This document shows positions 2,115-39,410 of a stretch of 64,000 bases of DNA, piece after piece (within the stretch, counting starts at the first letter, position 1; each line of letters opens with the position of its first letter). The stretch is taken from NCBI RefSeq assembly GCF_003018235.1, contig NZ_CP027437.1; one strand, 5' to 3'. Below the pieces are notes generated by a model. The model searched no databases, had not been told where the DNA came from, and was given only the letters and a program-made list of their open reading frames with translations. Position numbers and translations under genes: made by a program. The DNA comes from Escherichia coli (GTDB lineage Bacteria > Pseudomonadota > Gammaproteobacteria > Enterobacterales > Enterobacteriaceae).

Positions 2115-2286
2115 GTCTCTGCTTTTTGCCGCTTTTGTAATACAGTCTACGTCCGGGTTAGCGCCGCCTGGTGAAAGCATCATTGGATGAAAAATCGGCA
2201 ACAGGCTGGCCCCTGTTTGCTTCGCGATGCGAATAAACTTATTATTTGTGTGCCTGAAAACCCCGATCAGTGAGAGTAGTGTACTC

Positions 2287-4476
2287 ATGTTTGTGGAGCA
2301 TAACCTGATAAAAAATATCAAGATATTCACACTAGCGTTTACGCTCACCGTGGTACTTATTCAGCTATCCCGTTTTATTTCGCCACTTGCCATTATCCAT
2401 TCCAGTTATATCTTTCTGGCGTGGATGCCACTGTGCGTAATGCTGTCAATCTTGTTTATCTTTGGCTGGCGCGGTGTCGTTCCCGTTTTATGCGGGATGT
2501 TTTGCACCAATCTGTGGAACTTTCATCTCTCTTTTTTACAGACCGCGGTCATGCTCGGCAGCCAGACGTTTGTTGTGTTGTGTGCCTGCGCAATATTACG
2601 CTGGCAGCTGGGGACGCGTTGGCGTTATGGATTGACCAGCCGATATGTCTGGCAACGTCTTTTCTGGCTTGGTTTGGTGACGCCGATCGGCATCAAATGC
2701 AGCATGTATCTTGTGGGGAGCTTTTTTGATTTCCCGCTAAAGATATCCACCTTTTTCGGCGATGCGGATGCCATTTTCACAGTCGTTGATTTACTAAGCC
2801 TTTTCACCGCTGTGCTGATTTACAACATGCTTTTCTACTATCTCACTCGCATGATTGTAAGTCCCCACTTTGCGCAGATATTGTGGCGCAGGGATATCGC
2901 TCCGTCGTTGAGCAAAGAGAAACGCGCATTTACCTTAAGCTGGCTGGCAGCTCTTAGCGTGCTGCTACTTCTGATGTGCACACCGTATGAGAATGACTTT
3001 ATTGCCGGTTACCTGGTACCTGTTTTCTTCATTATCTTTACCCTCGGTGTCGGTAAGCTTCGCTATCCGTTTTTAAATCTCACCTGGGCTGTTTCAACGC
3101 TTTGCCTTCTGAATTACAACCAGAACTTTTTGCAAGGGGTACTAACCGAATATTCGCTGGCATTTATTCTCGCGGTGCTGATTTCCTTTAGCGTTTGCCT
3201 GCTCTATATGGTGCGCATTTATCATCGCAGTGAATGGCTTAATCGCCGCTGGCATTTGCAGGCGCTGACCGATCCGTTAACGCTCCTACCCAACTTTCGT
3301 GCGTTGGAGCAAGCGCCGGAGCAAGAGGCGGGCAAGAGTTTTTGCTGCCTGCGCATTGATAATCTTGAGTTTATGAGTCGTCATTACGGCTTAATGATGC
3401 GCGTTCACTGTATCCGCTCAATTTACCGTACGCTGCTGCCGTTGATGCAGGAAAACGAAAAGTTGTATCAATTGCCGGGTAGTGAACTGCTGTTAGTGCT
3501 GAGTGGACCGGAAACGGAAGGGCGACTCCAGCATATGGTTAACATCCTGAATAGTCGGCAAATTCACTGGAACAATACCGGGCTGGATATGGGCTATGGT
3601 GCTGCCTGGGGGCGTTTTGATGGAAATCAGGAAACCCTGCAACCCTTGTTGGGGCAGTTAAGCTGGCTGGCGGAGCAATCCTGCGCACATCACCATGTGC
3701 TGGCGCTGGATAGCAGAGAGGAGATGGTTTCCGGGCAGACCACTAAACAGGTGCTATTGCTGAATACCATTCGCACGGCGTTAGATCAGGGTGATTTGCT
3801 GCTCTACGCCCAGCCAATTCGCAACAAAGAGGGTGAAGGTTATGATGAGATCCTCGCGCGACTGAAATATGACGGTGGCATTATGACCCCGGATAAGTTT
3901 CTGCCCCTTATTGCTCAGTTTAACCTTAGCGCGCGTTTTGATTTGCAAGTGCTGGAATCCCTGTTGAAGTGGCTGGCAACACATCCTTGCGACAAAAAAG
4001 GCCCGCGCTTTTCAGTCAATTTAATGCCGCTCACGCTGCTGCAAAAGAATATTGCCGGGCGGATTATTCGTCTGTTTAAGCGTTATAACATCTCCCCGCA
4101 GGCGGTCATTCTTGAGATCACCGAGGAGCAGGCGTTTTCTAACGCAGAAAGCAGCATGTACAACATCGAGCAACTGCATAAGTTTGGTTTCCGGATTGCG
4201 ATTGATGACTTTGGCACCGGTTATGCCAACTACGAACGGTTAAAGCGTTTGCAGGCTGATATCATCAAAATTGATGGCGTCTTTGTGAAAGATATCGTCA
4301 CGAATACGCTGGATGCGATGATTGTGAGATCAATTACCGATCTGGCGAAAGCGAAGTCATTGAGTGTGGTCGCGGAGTTTGTCGAGACGCAACAGCAGCA
4401 GGCGCTATTGCATAAGCTCGGGGTGCAATATCTGCAAGGGTATTTGATTGGTCGCCCGCAGCCATTAGCTGATTAA
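2287..4476 (+). CDS. pdeA: membrane-anchored c-di-GMP phosphodiesterase (EAL domain), about 729 aa; ORF opens at 2227, internal Met start chosen
   Basis: ORF track; multi-TM N-terminus plus C-terminal EAL-type region; K-12 synteny (yfeA) between the tRNA-Ala genes and nupC. Confidence 0.75.
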   Translation: MFVEHNLIKNIKIFTLAFTLTVVLIQLSRFISPLAIIHSSYIFLAWMPLCVMLSILFIFGWRGVVPVLCGMFCTNLWNFHLSFLQTAVMLGSQTFVVLCACAILRWQLGTRWRYGLTSRYVWQRLFWLGLVTPIGIKCSMYLVGSFFDFPLKISTFFGDADAIFTVVDLLSLFTAVLIYNMLFYYLTRMIVSPHFAQILWRRDIAPSLSKEKRAFTLSWLAALSVLLLLMCTPYENDFIAGYLVPVFFIIFTLGVGKLRYPFLNLTWAVSTLCLLNYNQNFLQGVLTEYSLAFILAVLISFSVCLLYMVRIYHRSEWLNRRWHLQALTDPLTLLPNFRALEQAPEQEAGKSFCCLRIDNLEFMSRHYGLMMRVHCIRSIYRTLLPLMQENEKLYQLPGSELLLVLSGPETEGRLQHMVNILNSRQIHWNNTGLDMGYGAAWGRFDGNQETLQPLLGQLSWLAEQSCAHHHVLALDSREEMVSGQTTKQVLLLNTIRTALDQGDLLLYAQPIRNKEGEGYDEILARLKYDGGIMTPDKFLPLIAQFNLSARFDLQVLESLLKWLATHPCDKKGPRFSVNLMPLTLLQKNIAGRIIRLFKRYNISPQAVILEITEEQAFSNAESSMYNIEQLHKFGFRIAIDDFGTGYANYERLKRLQADIIKIDGVFVKDIVTNTLDAMIVRSITDLAKAKSLSVVAEFVETQQQQALLHKLGVQYLQGYLIGRPQPLAD

Positions 4477-4483
4477 CAGGCGT

Positions 4484-4516
4484 AAAAAAGCCGGGGAATG
4501 ATCCCCGGCTTTTTTA
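4484..4516. terminator. bidirectional Rho-independent terminator between convergent pdeA and nupC
   Basis: stem agccgggga / tccccggct flanked by A-run and T-run. Confidence 0.7.
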
Positions 4517-4525
4517 TGTATGGTT

Positions 4526-5728
4526 TTACAGCACCAGTGCTGCGATTGACGCAGACAGCACACTCACCAGGGTAGAGCCGTAAACCAGTTTCAGACCGAA
4601 GCGAGAAACCACGTTACCTTGCTCTTCATTCAGGCCTTTAACTGCACCGGCGATAATCCCGATTGAAGAGAAGTTAGCGAAGGAAACCAGGAACACAGAG
4701 ATGATGCCTTCAGCACGCGGAGAGAGTGTAGAGGCAATTTTCTGCAGATCCATCATCGCAACGAACTCGTTGGAAACCAGTTTGGTCGCCATGATACTGC
4801 CCACTTGCAGTGCTTCACTGGAAGGAACACCCATCACCCATGCAATCGGATAGAAGATGTAGCCCAGGATGCCCTGGAAGGAGATGCTGTAGCCAAACCA
4901 GCCAGTAACGGTGGCAAACAGTGCGTTCAGCGCGGCGATCAGGGCGATAAAGCCGATCAGCATCGCGGCAACGATAATGGCAACTTTGAAACCTGCCAGA
5001 ATGTATTCACCCAGCATTTCGAAGAAGCTCTGACCTTCGTGCAGGTTGGACATCTGGATGTTTTCTTCACTGGCATCAACACGGTAAGGGTTGATCAGCG
5101 ACAGCACGATAAAGGTGCTGAACATGTTCAGTACCAGTGCCGCAACGACGTATTTCGGTTCCAGCATGGTCATGTATGCACCAACGATGGACATCGACAC
5201 GGTGGACATCGCCGTGGCAGCCATGGTGTACATGCGATTGCGGGAGATTTTGCCGAGGATATCTTTATAGGCAATAAAGTTTTCAGACTGACCCAGAATC
5301 AGGGAGCTGACGGCGTTAAAGGATTCCAGTTTGCCCATGCCGTTGACTTTGGAGAGCAGGAAACCAATTGCGCGGATAATCACCGGCAACACGCGAATGT
5401 GCTGGAGAATACCGATCAGTGCAGAGATAAAGACGATTGGGCACAGCACTTTCAGGAAGAAGAATGCCAGGCCTTGATCATTCATGCTACCAAAGACGAA
5501 GTTAGTCCCTTCGTTGGCAAATCCGAGCAGTTTTTCAAACATTTCGGAGAAGCCTTTCACGAAGCCTAAACCAACGTCGGAGTTCAGGAAGAACCACGCC
5601 AGTAACACTTCGATAACAAGCAGTTGAATAACATAACGGATACGAATTTTTTTGCGGTCGCTGCTTACCAGCAGTGCGAGAATCGCAACAACGGCAAGTG
5701 CCAGTACAAAATGAAGGACGCGGTCCAT
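4526..5728 (-). CDS. nupC: nucleoside:H+ symporter, 400 aa (ORF extends to 5767; start taken at MDRVLHF)
   Basis: ORF track; recalled NupC sequence; synteny. Confidence 0.85.
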
Positions 5729-5994
5729 ATTTGCTCCAAATATGAGGCAGGTTAAATTTCCGTGCACATTCTATGTAACATGGTTAAGGAAAACGAGATC
5801 TGACACACACTATAATGACGTCCTGTGACAAGCTTCAAAAATAGTGAGCTGTCATACATTTCTGCTATGTTGTGTATGGAAGCTGAAAGTTATGTAAATG
5901 TGCTAACATTAAACATAACCATAACATTCAAGTCATCAATCTTTTCGTAGTCATAATCCTGGTCTATCAGAGAAATCACCACAACCCATTTAAA

Positions 5995-6016
5995 TGAATT
6001 TGATAATCATTATCGT
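5995..6016. promoter_or_regulatory. Fur box candidate in the mntH promoter (tgaatttGATAATCATTATCg)
   Basis: GATAATCATTATC matches the Fur consensus core; position about 50 bp upstream of the mntH start. Confidence 0.6.
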
Positions 6017-6029
6017 TTGGCATAGCATG

Positions 6030-6051
6030 AAACATAGCAAAGGCTATGTTT
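6030..6051. promoter_or_regulatory. MntR operator candidate: palindrome AAACATAGC-AAAG-GCTATGTTT
   Basis: near-perfect inverted repeat immediately upstream of the mntH start codon. Confidence 0.6.
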
Positions 6052-6054
6052 TAG

Positions 6055-7302
<1,248 letters not shown>

Positions 7303-25496: not shown

Positions 25497-25514
25497 TTCC
25501 TACAATTGTAAGGC
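25497..25514. promoter_or_regulatory. EvgA-box candidate, TTCCTACA-AT-TGTAAGGC, upstream of yfdX
   Basis: 18-bp inverted repeat matching the EvgA consensus as I recall it (TTCYTACA-N2-TGTARGAA); about 135 bp upstream of yfdX. Confidence 0.55.
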
Positions 25515-25649
25515 TAAAATACTTCTTGCGATAATAACTACAACTGTAAGATAACCCTTTCAAAATGAGCGTTGCTCTCTGATTTCTCATTTCATGCTCA
25601 CCCAATATGATGGCGGCGTTTTCTAAAACTGTTAAAGAATGAGGTAAGT

Positions 25650-26370: not shown

Positions 26371-26793
26371 AAATTATTTGGCGCTCGCGGTTCTATAAAC
26401 TCGCATTTTATCTTCCTCAAAGTAAACCGCAATAATCCCGTGTCATCACAAATCATTTATTATGTTATGTTTTATGGTACGCTTTAAAAATCGTAATCAT
26501 ACCCTTACTTGTAAATCACCGGCGCTTCTTACAGTTGTAAGAATAACATCACAAATGTCGCGGCTCTCTCTGATTACCGCGAACCAATATTTATCATATT
26601 CTTCTTTTCGTCCTCACTACTTACCATGCAGAAAGGAATTGGAAGTAGCGATGAAATGATTTTCAGTACTTGATACAGGAATTTAAAAATATCGAGTGCA
26701 GCTACGACGATATTTTGCGGATTATTTATAGAGGCGTTATGTCTTAAATAAACGCTAAATTAACACATATTTAATTAACTAATAGGTATTGCT

Positions 26794-32080: not shown

Positions 32081-35000
32081 TTAGTCATTTTGTTGACAGA
32101 AAACAGCTATCTCCTGGTCCAGCTCTGCAATGTGTTCTTTAACAGAGTTCAGCAGCTGAAGAATTTCAGGCTTACTGTCATCTGAAACAGGTGTTATTTC
32201 TAACTGATGGCTAAGATTAATCAACTTTTGCAAATTCAGGATGTTAGCTGCACCGTGGATGCGATGAATACACTGATGGAAAGTTCTGTTGTCGCCAGCT
32301 TCTAGTGCATGAAACGCAGCGGGTAGATCTTTATGCGTTTCATGCTGGAAAGTCATGAGAATCTCCTGCATCAGTTGTAGATCGTTCGCCGTATTATTTT
32401 TCAGGGCCTCGATATCAAGGTGGCGATACTGAGGTGCAATAGGCGCAACCTGGTGTAACTGACTTAAATGTGTTTTCAGTACATCCAGGGTCAACGGTTT
32501 GAACAAACATAAGTTCATGCCGCAATTTAACCCTTTTTCACGTTCGTTAGCCTGTGCGTTGGCTGTAAGCCCCCAGATGGGTAAGGAAGAATTTTGCTCA
32601 CGGAGTTTGCGAGTCAACTCAAAACCATCCATATTCGGCATATTAACGTCAGTAATAAGCAGATCATAATGTTGCATACTGACTTTGTGTAGCGCTTGCA
32701 CACCATCAGTTGCTTCATCAACATCATATCCTAATAGGTTTAGCTGGCGTTTGAGTAATAGCCTGTTGGTCGGATGATCATCCGCGATTAATATGCTCAA
32801 CTTTTCAGGGAGTGTCATGGGTTGTTCTGCTTTTGCCTCGACAGTCGCCACTTGTTGGGTAATTTCTACCGGGATTGTGATCGTAAATGTCGTTCCTATG
32901 CCTGGATGACTTTCTAATGACAAATCGCCCTGCATGTTTTTAATTAATTCTTTGCAGATCATTAAGCCTAAACCAGAACCTGTTTGCTGACGACCTGCAC
33001 TTGTTTGGCTATAGCGTTTAAACAGTTGTTGTTGTTCTTCCTGTGATAATCCACTTCCAGAATCCATAATCGTCATTTTGATTACAGCGTGGTTGTCATC
33101 AATGTTAACCAGGGAGGTCGTAATTTTTACTGCCCCCTCGGTGGTAAATTTGAGAGCATTGCTCAGTAAATTAGATAAGACCTGCTTAAACGCCTGAGGG
33201 TCGATCTTAACCAGGTAATGTTCAGGAAACGTACTGCTGCAACTTAATGCGATCGATTTGCTTGCAGCAATCGCACCGAAAGAGTGACAAGTGTTCTGGA
33301 CTAAAGTAGGGATATCGACCCATTGTGGTTGAAGTTGATAGTTACCCGACTCAATTTTGTCGACATCAAGGATTTCACCAATTAAGCCGAGGAGTGATTG
33401 TCCGGTGGCGTAGGCAAGTGAAATCGCCTCCACCCGTTGTTCCTTGCTAAGACCAGAACCCGACAGAAGTTCCAGGAAGCCCATAATGGAGCTTATTGGT
33501 GTTCTTATTTCGTGACTCATTGTTGCCAGAAACTGACTTTTTGCGACAGTTGCATTGATCGCTTTATTTCTCTCTACTTCGAGAGCGTGAATTAAATCAC
33601 GCGTCTCGGTAATATCTTGCCAACCACAAATATAAACAGCATGATCGCTGGCTGGCAGATTGCATAATGTATGCCAGTGATTAATGCATCTTTTCTCGAT
33701 GCCATTATCAATTTCAAATACCTGTGTGTATATTGTTCGATTTTCTTTCGTTTCTGCTGTGACTTCATGCGCATTAGAAAAAACATCTTTAAAGGGTGAG
33801 TCACTGTTTTCTAATGGTAACATTGCATTTTTGTAGTAATCCGCAGTGAAATAATGTTCAAAAGCACTATTATGACTAATGACATTACCTTGCCAGTTTA
33901 CAACATAAGTTGGATTCGGTAAGGAATCCGAGAGTGCTTTTCGGAATGATATTTGGTTTTCTAAATCACCCTGAATGACTTTACGACGACGAACTGAGCG
34001 TAACAGGTAGAATCCCCATAAAAGGCTACTGCCAACTAATAAAACGGATAATGTCGTGACAATATAAAATTGCTCGCTATAGAGGTCCCATGTGTCAATG
34101 GTCACATTGGGCATTTTAATCCATTTTTCCGTCAGGCGCAGAACTTCGCTTGGGGGAATTGCATTCAGTGCTTTATTAATAATATCCTTAAGTTCCGGTT
34201 CTCCGCGAGGAAAAGCGAACGAAAGCGATGCATTCGGAACGCCGGGAATAAGAAAATGATAAAGTTCATTAGGATAGTAATGGTCGATCATGTAACGTGA
34301 ATTTAACTGTGTCGCGACCAGAGCATCAAGTTCGCCTTCCTTGACCTTGTGAAATGCAGCGCTGGCGTTATCGACTTTTATCCACTCTACCTCCGGATAC
34401 ATCTCTTTTAATTGCGAATGAAGCTCATAATAATAGGGAATGGCAACTTTCATTCCTTTTTTTAATGTTTGTTCACTGTCAGGCGCTTTTTGCATGACAA
34501 AAACGTAAGGCGTTGTTATGAAGGCTTCAGCAAATAAAACATTATTTTCTCTATCTTCACTATAAATAGCGGCGGGCAATATATCCCATCCACCGGGGTT
34601 AAGCTGTGTCCCCGCATGAATATTGTGTGAAACGGTGATCGGAGAAAAATTTAAACCTGTTTGCAAGGTAATAATATTAAGAATATCACCCATCACGCCC
34701 CGAACTGAGCCAGTTTCATCTGTCATAGAATAGGGTGGCGAGTAAGGATTTTCCAGCACCTTTAAATCGGGATGCTGCTTAATCCACTGTTTTTCATGTT
34801 CAGTGAGTTCTAATGGTTTGTTCAGAAAGGCCAGGTTTCCTGTATCAAGCCAATTTTGTGATACTTCATAGCGAACTTCATTTGTTAAAGCATCAACAAA
34901 TCGATTGAGTACTTCATTAAGAACGACTGAATCTTTTCTGGTTAAGAAAAAGTTATATTGACGCGGCGAGTTATAATATTTCACTACATTTAAGGAGTGA

Positions 35001-35674
35001 GTGAAATAGCGGGAAATCATACTGCTGGTAATAATGTTACTACCAATAAAGTAATCATTCTGTCCGGCTGAGACGGATGCTAATGCCTGATATAAATTTG
35101 TAAAAGAGATAATTGTTGCTTTTGGAAATGATTGATGAATTACCTCATCTGGAGGGTAATTTGCTACCCGAGCAATATTTACTGGTTTTGATGAGGTAAG
35201 CGGTCTCATTGAATCGTGAAGGGTGGTGACCAGCGCCGGAAAGGTAATTATCAGCGGTTTGGTTGCAGCAATGTCATCATTAAGAGGCGGCGAAGCAACT
35301 AAATGTGATAACACTATATCGACTTCCCCTTCTGTAAGCGCGTCCATTGCTTTTTGATGATCTGCGTATTCCCGGAGTGTTAATTTGATATTTAACGCTC
35401 TTTTTAAAAGATTTAAATAATCAGCATTAATACCACGAACCCGTTGCTGCGAATCGGTATGCAACAAAGTAGCTGTTTGGGACTTGTGTACTGCAATCAC
35501 AAGATTTTTTTTGCTCGCTAACCAACGTAATTCCTTGTTGCTCAGACGTAGTGGATCAAGCGTGACACGGTTGTTACTACTGATGCCACGATATTCGATG
35601 TAATCTTCGTCTGCGAAACTTATGGTCGACCAAAGACCACAACAGAGAAGAATAATATAGGGTAAAAACTTCAT
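32081..35674 (-). CDS. evgS: hybrid sensor histidine kinase with periplasmic binding domains, HisKA/HATPase, receiver and HPt, 1197 aa
   Basis: ORF track; domain order recognisable; synteny. Confidence 0.9.
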   Translation of the reverse strand: MKFLPYIILLCCGLWSTISFADEDYIEYRGISSNNRVTLDPLRLSNKELRWLASKKNLVIAVHKSQTATLLHTDSQQRVRGINADYLNLLKRALNIKLTLREYADHQKAMDALTEGEVDIVLSHLVASPPLNDDIAATKPLIITFPALVTTLHDSMRPLTSSKPVNIARVANYPPDEVIHQSFPKATIISFTNLYQALASVSAGQNDYFIGSNIITSSMISRYFTHSLNVVKYYNSPRQYNFFLTRKDSVVLNEVLNRFVDALTNEVRYEVSQNWLDTGNLAFLNKPLELTEHEKQWIKQHPDLKVLENPYSPPYSMTDETGSVRGVMGDILNIITLQTGLNFSPITVSHNIHAGTQLNPGGWDILPAAIYSEDRENNVLFAEAFITTPYVFVMQKAPDSEQTLKKGMKVAIPYYYELHSQLKEMYPEVEWIKVDNASAAFHKVKEGELDALVATQLNSRYMIDHYYPNELYHFLIPGVPNASLSFAFPRGEPELKDIINKALNAIPPSEVLRLTEKWIKMPNVTIDTWDLYSEQFYIVTTLSVLLVGSSLLWGFYLLRSVRRRKVIQGDLENQISFRKALSDSLPNPTYVVNWQGNVISHNSAFEHYFTADYYKNAMLPLENSDSPFKDVFSNAHEVTAETKENRTIYTQVFEIDNGIEKRCINHWHTLCNLPASDHAVYICGWQDITETRDLIHALEVERNKAINATVAKSQFLATMSHEIRTPISSIMGFLELLSGSGLSKEQRVEAISLAYATGQSLLGLIGEILDVDKIESGNYQLQPQWVDIPTLVQNTCHSFGAIAASKSIALSCSSTFPEHYLVKIDPQAFKQVLSNLLSNALKFTTEGAVKITTSLVNIDDNHAVIKMTIMDSGSGLSQEEQQQLFKRYSQTSAGRQQTGSGLGLMICKELIKNMQGDLSLESHPGIGTTFTITIPVEITQQVATVEAKAEQPMTLPEKLSILIADDHPTNRLLLKRQLNLLGYDVDEATDGVQALHKVSMQHYDLLITDVNMPNMDGFELTRKLREQNSSLPIWGLTANAQANEREKGLNCGMNLCLFKPLTLDVLKTHLSQLHQVAPIAPQYRHLDIEALKNNTANDLQLMQEILMTFQHETHKDLPAAFHALEAGDNRTFHQCIHRIHGAANILNLQKLINLSHQLEITPVSDDSKPEILQLLNSVKEHIAELDQEIAVFCQQND

Positions 35675-35678
35675 GTGG

Positions 35679-36293
35679 TTAGCCGATTTTGTTACGTTGT
35701 GCGAATGTGTAAAGATCCATCAGTGATTTACATTCTAATTTTTCCATCAGGCGACTTTTATAAGTGCTGACAGTTTTGTTGCTGATGAACATTTTTTCCG
35801 CAATGTCATTATTATCCTTGCCATCAAGAATATATCGCATGACACTAATTTCTTGTTTCGATAAGGAGTCGAGTTTTTGCTGGTCGGACGTTAAACTTCC
35901 AACAAACCGGTTGAGAGAGAAGGGGAAATAGCAGTAGCCATTTTTTGCAGCTTCAATAGCCGCAATGATATTGTTCATGCCTTCTTTTTTACTCACGAAT
36001 CCATTAGCGCCAGCATCAGCACAATGTTTCCCGTAAAAATGGTCATTTTTAGCGGAGACGATAATAATAATTCCGCTATATTGGCGCTTCCTCAGCGTTT
36101 CTAACACCTGGATACCGTTAACTCCGGGGATATCGACATCAATGATGACGATATCAGGCTTAAGTGTTTCCACCCGCTGAACGGCACTTCCCCCTTCAGT
36201 CAACTCCGCTAAGATTTCAATATCGTTTTTGATCAATAAATTACGAATTGCTGCGATAGCAAGAGGATGGTCATCAATAATTATTGCGTTCAT
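35679..36293 (-). CDS. evgA: NarL/FixJ-family response regulator, 204 aa
   Basis: ORF track; receiver plus LuxR-type HTH. Confidence 0.9.
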   Translation of the reverse strand: MNAIIIDDHPLAIAAIRNLLIKNDIEILAELTEGGSAVQRVETLKPDIVIIDVDIPGVNGIQVLETLRKRQYSGIIIIVSAKNDHFYGKHCADAGANGFVSKKEGMNNIIAAIEAAKNGYCYFPFSLNRFVGSLTSDQQKLDSLSKQEISVMRYILDGKDNNDIAEKMFISNKTVSTYKSRLMEKLECKSLMDLYTFAQRNKIG

Positions 36294-36517
36294 AGATTAT
36301 TCCCTTTGCAATGAAGCATCTCCCTTCTCCCTGTAGTAATACAGACATAAGGCATCATCTCATTTTCTCAATAAAAATAAGAAAATTTGAGCTTCCTTTA
36401 AGATAATTCGACAAGTATACCATATAAATAGTCGGCATAAATGAAATGTCAACAATAAAATCAGGGATTGTACCGATGATTTATAGTTTCACATTAGCAC
36501 TATAAGTCTTCTCACTA

Positions 36518-36535
36518 ATCCTACATGCGTAAGAA
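36518..36535. promoter_or_regulatory. EvgA-box candidate, aTCCTACA-TG-CGTAAGAA, in the evgA–emrK divergent region
   Basis: 18-bp imperfect inverted repeat resembling the yfdX box; lies between evgA and emrK. Confidence 0.5.
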
Positions 36536-36708
36536 TTGTATTGCAAAAGCCACGGTTTAGTCCTCTGTTGTTTTTTTTGCACCTCATTTAAATTAGGCCT
36601 CCAACGTTCCTGGGACAATGTGCAACACATGCACTGTGTTTGATATGAAGAATGAATACTCTTTTCATTCAATTCATAAATTTCATCTATGCGAAATGAG
36701 AGATAATA

Positions 36709-37872
36709 GTGGAACAGATTAATTCAAATAAAAAACATTCTAACAGAAGAAAATACTTTTCTTTATTGGCGGTAGTTTTATTTATTGCGTTTTCAGGTGC
36801 CTATGCCTATTGGTCAATGGAATTAGAAGACATGATTAGTACAGATGACGCCTATGTCACGGGGAATGCAGATCCAATTTCTGCACAAGTTTCAGGCAGC
36901 GTCACTGTCGTTAATCATAAAGATACGAACTACGTTCGACAGGGTGACATTTTAGTCTCACTGGATAAGACTGATGCCACTATCGCACTCAATAAAGCTA
37001 AAAATAATCTGGCCAATATTGTTCGGCAAACGAATAAACTGTACTTACAGGATAAACAATACAGTGCCGAAGTCGCTTCAGCACGTATTCAGTATCAACA
37101 ATCTTTAGAAGATTATAACCGTCGTGTACCTTTAGCGAAGCAGGGGGTTATTTCAAAAGAAACGCTGGAGCATACCAAAGATACGTTAATAAGTAGCAAA
37201 GCGGCATTGAATGCTGCTATTCAGGCTTATAAAGCGAATAAAGCTTTAGTAATGAACACACCATTAAACCGTCAGCCACAAGTCGTTGAAGCTGCGGATG
37301 CAACCAAAGAAGCCTGGTTGGCGCTTAAACGTACGGATATTAAGAGTCCGGTTACCGGCTATATTGCCCAGCGAAGTGTTCAGGTCGGCGAAACAGTGAG
37401 TCCCGGACAATCGTTAATGGCTGTCGTACCGGCACGTCAAATGTGGGTTAATGCTAACTTTAAAGAAACACAACTCACGGATGTACGGATTGGTCAATCG
37501 GTCAATATTATCAGCGATCTTTATGGTGAAAATGTTGTGTTTCATGGTCGGGTGACAGGGATCAATATGGGAACCGGCAATGCGTTCTCCTTATTACCTG
37601 CACAAAATGCGACAGGGAATTGGATCAAAATCGTTCAGCGTGTACCGGTTGAGGTTTCTCTTGATCCAAAAGAACTCATGGAACATCCCTTGCGTATTGG
37701 TTTATCGATGACTGCAACTATTGATACCAGGAACGAAGACATTGCCGATATGCCCGATCTGGCTTCAACCGTGACGTCCATGCCTGCTTATACCAGTAAG
37801 GCTTTAGTTATCGATACCAGTCCGATAGAAAAAGAAATTAGCAACATTATTTCGCATAATGGACAACTTTAA
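36709..37872 (+). CDS. emrK: multidrug efflux membrane fusion protein (EmrA paralog), 387 aa
   Basis: ORF track; HlyD-family; synteny. Confidence 0.85.
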   Translation: MEQINSNKKHSNRRKYFSLLAVVLFIAFSGAYAYWSMELEDMISTDDAYVTGNADPISAQVSGSVTVVNHKDTNYVRQGDILVSLDKTDATIALNKAKNNLANIVRQTNKLYLQDKQYSAEVASARIQYQQSLEDYNRRVPLAKQGVISKETLEHTKDTLISSKAALNAAIQAYKANKALVMNTPLNRQPQVVEAADATKEAWLALKRTDIKSPVTGYIAQRSVQVGETVSPGQSLMAVVPARQMWVNANFKETQLTDVRIGQSVNIISDLYGENVVFHGRVTGINMGTGNAFSLLPAQNATGNWIKIVQRVPVEVSLDPKELMEHPLRIGLSMTATIDTRNEDIADMPDLASTVTSMPAYTSKALVIDTSPIEKEISNIISHNGQL

Positions 37873-39410
37873 TGGCAATCACTAAATCAACTCCGGCACC
37901 ATTAACCGGTGGGACGTTATGGTGCGTTACTATTGCATTGTCATTAGCGACGTTTATGCAAATGTTGGATTCCACTATTTCTAACGTCGCAATACCGACA
38001 ATATCTGGCTTTCTGGGAGCATCAACAGACGAAGGCACCTGGGTTATCACTTCGTTTGGCGTAGCAAATGCCATTGCGATCCCTGTTACCGGCAGGCTGG
38101 CACAAAGAATAGGCGAATTAAGATTATTTTTACTTTCAGTCACTTTTTTTTCGCTGTCTTCCTTAATGTGTAGTTTATCGACCAATCTTGATGTGCTGAT
38201 ATTTTTTAGAGTCGTTCAGGGATTAATGGCGGGGCCGTTAATTCCACTGTCACAGAGTTTATTATTAAGGAATTATCCACCAGAAAAAAGAACATTTGCT
38301 CTGGCATTATGGTCTATGACCGTGATTATCGCGCCGATATGTGGGCCGATATTGGGCGGTTATATTTGTGATAACTTTAGCTGGGGTTGGATATTTTTAA
38401 TCAATGTCCCTATGGGGATTATCGTCCTGACATTATGCTTAACCTTACTTAAAGGAAGAGAAACTGAGACTTCACCGGTCAAAATGAATCTACCAGGACT
38501 GACCCTGTTAGTGCTCGGTGTTGGTGGCTTGCAAATTATGCTCGATAAAGGGCGCGATCTGGATTGGTTCAACTCGAGTACAATAATAATACTAACAGTA
38601 GTGTCAGTTATTTCTCTGATCTCTTTAGTCATTTGGGAGTCGACCTCAGAGAATCCGATTCTTGACCTCAGTTTGTTTAAGTCCCGTAATTTCACCATTG
38701 GTATTGTGAGTATCACATGCGCGTATTTATTTTACTCTGGGGCAATAGTCCTTATGCCGCAATTACTCCAGGAAACGATGGGGTATAATGCGATATGGGC
38801 CGGACTTGCCTATGCGCCCATCGGCATCATGCCGCTATTAATATCACCTTTGATAGGACGTTATGGCAACAAAATTGATATGCGGTTGTTGGTGACATTT
38901 AGTTTTTTAATGTATGCGGTTTGCTATTACTGGCGTTCTGTGACATTTATGCCAACGATTGATTTTACAGGCATCATTTTGCCACAGTTTTTCCAGGGAT
39001 TCGCCGTCGCCTGTTTCTTTTTACCCTTAACAACGATTTCGTTTTCAGGTTTGCCAGATAATAAATTTGCCAATGCCTCGAGTATGAGTAATTTTTTTCG
39101 TACCTTGTCAGGATCAGTTGGTACGTCGTTGACAATGACGCTGTGGGGACGACGCGAATCGTTACACCATAGTCAGTTGACAGCAACCATCGATCAATTT
39201 AACCCCGTGTTTAATTCATCGTCACAAATTATGGATAAATACTATGGTTCGCTTTCAGGGGTTCTTAATGAAATTAATAATGAAATAACTCAGCAGTCAC
39301 TTTCAATTTCTGCAAATGAGATTTTCCGTATGGCGGCTATTGCTTTTATCTTACTTACGGTTTTGGTTTGGTTTGCGAAACCGCCGTTTACAGCGAAAGG
39401 CGTTGGGTGA
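37872..39410 (+). CDS. emrY: MFS multidrug efflux pump (EmrB paralog), 512 aa
   Basis: ORF track; 14-TMS MFS; start overlaps the emrK stop. Confidence 0.85.
   Translation: MAITKSTPAPLTGGTLWCVTIALSLATFMQMLDSTISNVAIPTISGFLGASTDEGTWVITSFGVANAIAIPVTGRLAQRIGELRLFLLSVTFFSLSSLMCSLSTNLDVLIFFRVVQGLMAGPLIPLSQSLLLRNYPPEKRTFALALWSMTVIIAPICGPILGGYICDNFSWGWIFLINVPMGIIVLTLCLTLLKGRETETSPVKMNLPGLTLLVLGVGGLQIMLDKGRDLDWFNSSTIIILTVVSVISLISLVIWESTSENPILDLSLFKSRNFTIGIVSITCAYLFYSGAIVLMPQLLQETMGYNAIWAGLAYAPIGIMPLLISPLIGRYGNKIDMRLLVTFSFLMYAVCYYWRSVTFMPTIDFTGIILPQFFQGFAVACFFLPLTTISFSGLPDNKFANASSMSNFFRTLSGSVGTSLTMTLWGRRESLHHSQLTATIDQFNPVFNSSSQIMDKYYGSLSGVLNEINNEITQQSLSISANEIFRMAAIAFILLTVLVWFAKPPFTAKGVG

Follow-up and report, generated by a model that had tools for sequence, protein, structure and literature searches.

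The closest counterparts of the element analysed here are inverted repeats bound by related regulators. In Bordetella, BvgA binds at the fha and bvg promoters to TTTCCTA heptads in inverted arrangement; these sites have the half-site core TTCCTA in common with the EvgA box of Escherichia coli, and both systems have an upstream inverted repeat of high affinity, possibly joined by a weaker element close to −35. The two differ in spacing and in flanking bases, and BvgA autoregulation is well established whereas that of EvgA is disputed. For EvgA, a second downstream contact may be proposed by analogy with the secondary BvgA sites. The 7-2-7 heptamer pairs of NarL and the RcsB/RcsAB box are likewise recognized by a helix-turn-helix dimer of the GerE/LuxR type, and are likewise inverted repeats with a 2-bp spacer. 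Their half-site sequences differ from those of the EvgA box, and the order of the TAAGAA and TTCCTA halves is reversed in the RcsAB box (TAAGAAT-ATTCCTA). Within E. coli, the closest homologue of BvgA is EvgA (PMC5573083).

For the EvgA regulon itself, inverted repeats upstream of yfdX and yfdW are bound by EvgA (PMC3720670), and the list of EvgA-bound operons includes the safA, ydeP, yegR, yfdX and frc operons (PMC8147483). Direct EvgA binding to, and regulation of, the emrKY promoter region is credited to Kato 2000 in the citing passages of PMC9496106, PMC8174306 and PMC5706723. In deletion mutants of evgA and of evgS, the induction of emrK was lost and the emrK reporter was silent (PMC6393483), while EvgS1 induces an emrK reporter (PMC5706723). 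The box between emrK and evgA shares with the EvgA boxes of ydeP, safA-ydeO, yegR, yfdX and frc (yfdW) the same 18-bp 8-2-8 inverted repeat, the same register and a −10-like hexamer. In contrast to these boxes, it has two mismatches that are absent from its sister lineages, lies in a divergent gap beside the gene of the regulator itself and is followed by an emrK-specific flank, TTGTATTGCAAAAG. The safA and ydeP boxes resemble the emrK box in that the promoter-distal half is degenerate and the proximal half ends in GTAAGAA.

A probable EvgA box in the emrK–evgA gap

The window (the whole 64,000-nucleotide stretch of DNA analysed) is chromosomal DNA of E. coli and runs in reverse orientation relative to K-12. 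Read directly from the plus strand, positions 36518–36535 are ATCCTACATGCGTAAGAA. This element is located inside a 415-bp gap between the evgA ORF of 204 codons on the minus strand and the emrK ORF of 387 codons on the plus strand (Table 1). The gap is 100% identical to that of E. coli EcPF15, for which the RefSeq annotation places evgS/evgA on one side and emrK/emrY on the other, with yfdX, frc, oxc, yfdV and yfdE farther off. Alignment with K-12 showed 10 substitutions in the 415 columns of the gap, and the EvgA protein encoded in the window is identical to K-12 EvgA.

The search pattern was TTCYTACA-NN-TGTARGAA (TTCYTACANNTGTARGAA), an 8-2-8 arrangement with 16 specified bases; this EvgA-box consensus reportedly goes back to Masuda and Church in 2003 and Itou in 2009. 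The emrK–evgA box matched 14 of the 16 specified bases, the two mismatches being A at position 1 and C at position 11. At up to two mismatches, three matches were detected in 64 kb against an expectation of 0.06, a number reached in none of 100 shuffles, and the corresponding expectation for the 415-bp gap was about 4e-4. At up to three mismatches, four matches were detected against 0.68 expected. All of the matches in the window were confined to three regulatory gaps, namely, those upstream of yfdX (two matches), upstream of frc and between emrK and evgA. In K-12, the pattern was also matched upstream of safA (1 mismatch), ydeP (2 mismatches) and yegR (1 mismatch). The emrK–evgA box is imperfect as a palindrome, with five of the eight half-site positions self-complementary, and it therefore counts as an EvgA box by its consensus match, not by symmetry.

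Table 1. Coordinates of the box, the neighbouring genes and promoter features, the other EvgA-type sites of the window and the boxes of two diverged loci (window positions unless a locus is named)
Feature	Position	Strand	Details and basis
EvgA box, ATCCTACA-TG-CGTAAGAA	36518–36535	.	Half-sites 36518–36525 and 36528–36535; spacer 36526–36527
Conserved flank TTGTATTGCAAAAG, emrK side of box	36536–36549	+	Spanned by the longest invariant run; invariant in 7 lineages
AGTCCT element	36559–36564	+	Offsets 24–29 after the box; AGTCCT in safA, AGTCTT in ydeP, AATCCT in yegR
Inferred −10 region TTAAATT of the EvgA-dependent emrK promoter	36588–36594	+	−10-like hexamer at offset 53–54
emrK (36709–37872) and emrY (37872–39410), regulated operon	36709–39410	+	ORFs; RefSeq annotation of EcPF15
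evgS (32081–35674) and evgA (35679–36293), sensor kinase and box-binding regulator	32081–36293	−	ORFs; EcPF15 annotation
evgA promoter core: extended −10 TGGTATACT (36422–36414), transcription start 36407	36407–36422	−	Mapped via K-12 alignment
evgL leader peptide MLHCKGNNL, translationally coupled to evgA	36290–36319	−	Translation; K-12 b4781; PMC11210196
Two EvgA-box-like sites upstream of yfdX	25497–25552	.	25497–25514, 2 mismatches; 25535–25552, 3 mismatches
Perfect EvgA box, palindrome TTCTTACAGTTGTAAGAA, upstream of frc (yfdW)	26526–26543	.	Pattern match
Box TTCTTACACCTGTAGGAA of L005, labelled E. coli SCPM-O-B-8794	2260–2277 (L005)		EvgA 98% identical; intergenic region about 85%; 0 mismatches
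Box TTCTTACACGTGTAGGCA of L006, labelled Yersinia vastinensis	2288–2305 (L006)		EvgA 94% identical; intergenic region 65%; 1 mismatch

An earlier, sequence-only reading had described an element with the architecture of the yfdX box between the divergent evgAS and emrKY operons. Both parts of this description were borne out: two 8-base halves and a 2-base spacer are present in both boxes, and the sequence and its position in the gap are as described. The motif scan agreed with it, and so did the comparison with the K-12 evgA–emrK region, which carries the same box bar one spacer base. A full-text literature search for the box sequences themselves gave no match, and phrases naming the box gave secondary mentions only. 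The consensus was probably derived in part from the same promoters and, for this reason, the agreement of the pattern across the regulon is partly circular; independent evidence was therefore sought.

Conservation within and beyond E. coli

To count the forms of the box among complete E. coli genomes, we used a 32-mer centred on the box and required an exact 28-base word, which necessarily covers the whole box. The intergenic region was present in 5,398 of the 5,426 genomes. Among those with the region, the exact K-12 form of the box was found in 4,866 and the window form in 369, so that approximately 97% of the 5,398 carry one or the other; the sole difference between these two forms is one unspecified spacer base (T in the window, G in K-12). 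The exact box was also found in all six divergent E. coli inspected, namely, FEA3, AVS0786, GF4-3, IAI39, JJ1886 and AST85. In AST85, five substitutions fell within 58 bp, none of them in the box or the emrK-side flank. Even where the sampled E. coli diverge most, every substitution lay outside the box.

Several further observations concern this intergenic region in E. coli. The polymorphisms seen within window positions 36294–36708 lay outside the box, and the host-informative loci of an E. coli source-tracking study include the emrKY–evgAS intergenic region (PMC11267920). Of the plasmid records in this E. coli collection, approximately 20 contain the emrK–evgA intergenic region. On plasmid pCFSAN061762 (L090, NZ_CP042902.1, 114 kb; locus 2273–6859), evgAS lies between IS1 copies, the box-bearing upstream region is kept and emrKY is replaced by IS1. 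E. coli NCTC10444 (L087, locus 2501–3388) is a naturally occurring strain that has evgAS but no box: it also lacks emrKY, and an IS1 located 179 bp upstream of evgA is followed by fimbrial genes.

Beyond these genomes, a scan for EvgA with one genome per species identified two diverged orthologous loci with a divergent emrK, L005 and L006 (Table 1). In both, a box stands at the aligned position and is nearer to the consensus than the E. coli box. Absence or degeneration of the site in relatives had been named beforehand as the outcome that would count against it; when examined, the box was present in E. coli, L005 and L006. In L006, 63% of codon third positions are identical in evgA and 54% in emrK. 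Plain identity between the E. coli and L006 boxes is 14 of 18, no higher than the intergenic background, and the conservation argument therefore rests on the box being kept as a box. The longest invariant run in the intergenic alignment of four lineages, AATACAATTCTTAC when read on the evgA strand, measures 14 bp and spans the emrK-proximal half-site and the emrK-side flank.

At box positions 1 and 11, E. coli proper has A and C, and both L005 and L006 have the consensus T. Judged from these sequences, the E. coli box looks like a fixed, slightly weakened version. L006 lies on a 590-kb contig of a genome labelled Yersinia vastinensis IP38594 and carries emrK–evgAS, with an EvgA 94% identical and silent sites nearly saturated, which suggests either a long-past transfer or wrong labelling of the lineage. 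No match labelled E. albertii, E. fergusonii or E. marmotae was obtained in the one-genome-per-species scan, reflecting either a lack of evgA or a miss of the scan. A 398-bp contig labelled Rhizobium cauense (L010) carries evgA 100% identical to that of E. coli, most likely as contamination.

Inferred layout of the promoter on the emrK side

Six EvgA-type promoters (emrK, safA, ydeP, yegR, frc and yfdX) were anchored on their boxes and compared downstream. Five offsets after the box, C9, A10, T26, C27 and T31, were invariant in all six. Only 0.22 invariant columns were expected, and none of 5,000 random registers reached five; an adjacent invariant pair, as at T26-C27, occurred in 4 of 10,000 random registers. 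This pattern suggests that a fixed promoter architecture extends past the 18-bp box. When emrK was held out, its emrK-facing flank matched five of the eight positions invariant in the other five promoters, and did so in all three lineages, compared with one to three of the eight for the evgA-facing flank. From the box centre to the emrK start codon, the distance is 182.5 bp in the window, 182.5 bp in L005 and 184.5 bp in L006, and that to evgA is 233.5, 232.5 and 204.5 bp, respectively. The distance, the shared downstream pattern and the position of the evgA start all point to emrK as the gene served by the box.

Within this layout, and counted from the TCCTA core in the first half-site, the TCCT core of the AGTCCT element starts 42 bp, or four helical turns, further on. 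By analogy, AGTCCT may be a second, low-affinity EvgA contact beside the −35 position. A −10-like hexamer lies 53–54 bases after the box at emrK, safA, yegR and yfdX, and also at emrK in L005 and L006, where it reads TAGAAT in L006. The shared layout predicts an emrK start site near 36600 (about 2483447 in K-12), which would place the box centre near −74. A generic sigma-70 scan returned nothing at the inferred emrK promoter and gave one weak promoter-like site, at 36432–36461 on the plus strand, fewer than in shuffled sequences. The lack of a generic sigma-70 match, together with the lack of a usable −35, fits an activator-dependent emrK promoter.

Other features of the gap and of the yfdX region were recorded separately. 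A sigma-70-like arrangement, TTGCAA-17-TAGGAT, faces evgA and overlaps the box; it was rejected as a promoter candidate, the last T of its −10 being lost in L005 and L006. Within the inferred emrK leader, a terminator-like hairpin (GTGCAACACATGCAC) is followed by a T-rich run at 36620–36634. In L005, one change in its stem is compensatory and one deletion is disruptive; an Rfam search of 36200–36800 returned no RNA family. Upstream of yfdX, the two box-like sites are 38 bp apart, and the weaker of them (3 mismatches), not the stronger, is in the regulon-wide register, with a −10-like TATGAT.

Possible autoregulation, alternative readings and the proposed role of the box

On the evgA side, the transcription start corresponds to K-12 position 2483641, that is, window position 36407, seven bases after the extended −10; a second evgA start site was reportedly described by Tanabe in 1998. 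The ATG of evgL is placed at +89 (PMC11210196). Relative to the evgA start used in that study, the box centre is at −119.5, which is outside the working distance looked for in an autoregulatory operator.

The sequence-only reading had also taken the box as a bidirectional operator, through which EvgA would both activate emrKY and regulate its own evgAS operon, and we regard this as doubtful. The published statements conflict. Early work is credited with placing an EvgA-bound region upstream of evgAS and with finding both operons under EvgA control (Tanabe 1998, in the citing passage of PMC5573083), and EvgA is described as ‘reported to be autoregulatory’ in the passage of PMC11210196 that cites the same work; however, evgA fusions were unresponsive to acid (PMC11210196), the passage of PMC8174306 citing Eguchi 2003 gives evgAS as not autoregulated and EvgS levels as constant, and in macrophages evgA mRNA was unchanged while emrK was induced (PMC6393483). 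The geometry of the locus also argues against it: a box centre at −119.5 is far for direct activation of evgA, the evgA-facing flank is without the shared downstream pattern and the distance from box to evgA is not kept in L006. Support comes from distant EvgA homologues (66–71% identical): upstream of each regulator gene stands a box-like sequence that departs from the pattern at 4 positions, and in Klebsiella and Buttiauxella no divergent emrK accompanies it. The joint chance of box-like matches at the four distant loci together is about 2e-5. In Buttiauxella, no divergent efflux gene lies beside the EvgA homologue. From these sites, some ancestral self-control by EvgA is possible. What stood of the earlier claim is thus the EvgA box controlling emrKY, on the grounds of motif, conservation and reviews, while its autoregulatory part stayed doubtful, given the conflicting papers, the −119.5 position and the lack of the pattern on the evgA side.

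Some details of these distant loci may be added. An identical 18-mer, TTCCTACAGCTGTCATCC, lies upstream of the EvgA homologues of Klebsiella pneumoniae (L008, 203–220) and Buttiauxella sp. B2 (L011, 2196–2213). Its left half is a perfect EvgA half-site and its right half is not, and the surrounding DNA is otherwise unalignable. Positional homology of the two 18-mers was rejected, as alignment of the upstream regions did not bring them into register. Hafnia alvei has a box-like palindrome, GTCCTACGTATGTAGGCG (L007, 2065–2082), in the space separating the EvgA homologue from an amino-acid permease gene, which hints at a different acid-related target in this genus.

Two further explanations bear on the emrK side. 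Related regulators of the LuxR/NarL type read similar cores, as in the RcsAB box and the BvgA heptad, and the site could be the target of another such regulator (RcsB or GadE) recognizing a TCCTA/TAAGA core, not of EvgA. The 8-2-8 arrangement and the downstream register are nevertheless those of the other EvgA-bound promoters, emrK induction is abolished when evgA or evgS is deleted (PMC6393483) and, according to EcoCyc as quoted in the relevant passage of PMC8174306, EvgA is the sole regulator common to emrKY and ydeP, which leaves this explanation very improbable. Less probable still is a functionless chance resemblance. Two mismatches, a poor palindrome (five of eight positions) and an AT-rich gap are what such a resemblance in AT-rich intergenic DNA might look like, but only about 4e-4 such matches are expected in the gap, the box is fixed across E. 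coli, and it is kept, nearer to the consensus, in loci with nearly saturated silent sites. Conservation thus effectively excludes chance resemblance.

We therefore return to EvgA control of emrKY. The box shows the features of an EvgA box that were tested: a match to the consensus, an EvgA/EvgS-dependent operon downstream, a conserved position and the shared register. We put the probability that the element is the EvgA operator for the emrKY promoter at about 0.88, and we infer that these exact 18 bases are the footprinted EvgA contact site. In the mechanism proposed here, mild acid and alkali metals would activate EvgS and thereby yield phosphorylated EvgA (EvgA~P), a helix-turn-helix protein of the NarL/FixJ type that would bind as a dimer to the two 8-base half-sites. 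The half-site centres are 10 bp apart, and both would therefore face the same side of the helix. From there, the dimer would help sigma-70 RNA polymerase to start at a weak promoter approximately 74 bp downstream, which is predicted to have the −10-like TTAAATT and no recognizable −35, possibly with a second weak EvgA contact at AGTCCT near the −35 position. A more speculative proposal, which we consider rather unlikely as it stands, is that EvgA-activated promoters, including emrK, are bipartite, consisting of the box and T26-C27 within AGTCCT, and, separately, that the EvgA~P threshold of emrKY could be higher because of the fixed E. coli changes at positions 1 and 11.

The operator is almost certainly real, conserved and already known as a member of the known EvgA regulon. 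As such, the site serves as a positive control for the genome scan, in which the sequence-only reading recovered a true regulon operator, and adds nothing new on the biology of EvgA. The box wires the EmrKY efflux pump to EvgS, the sensor of acid and alkali metals, and this EvgS–EmrKY link concerns tolerance to bile salts and drugs and the survival of Shigella in macrophages (PMC6393483).
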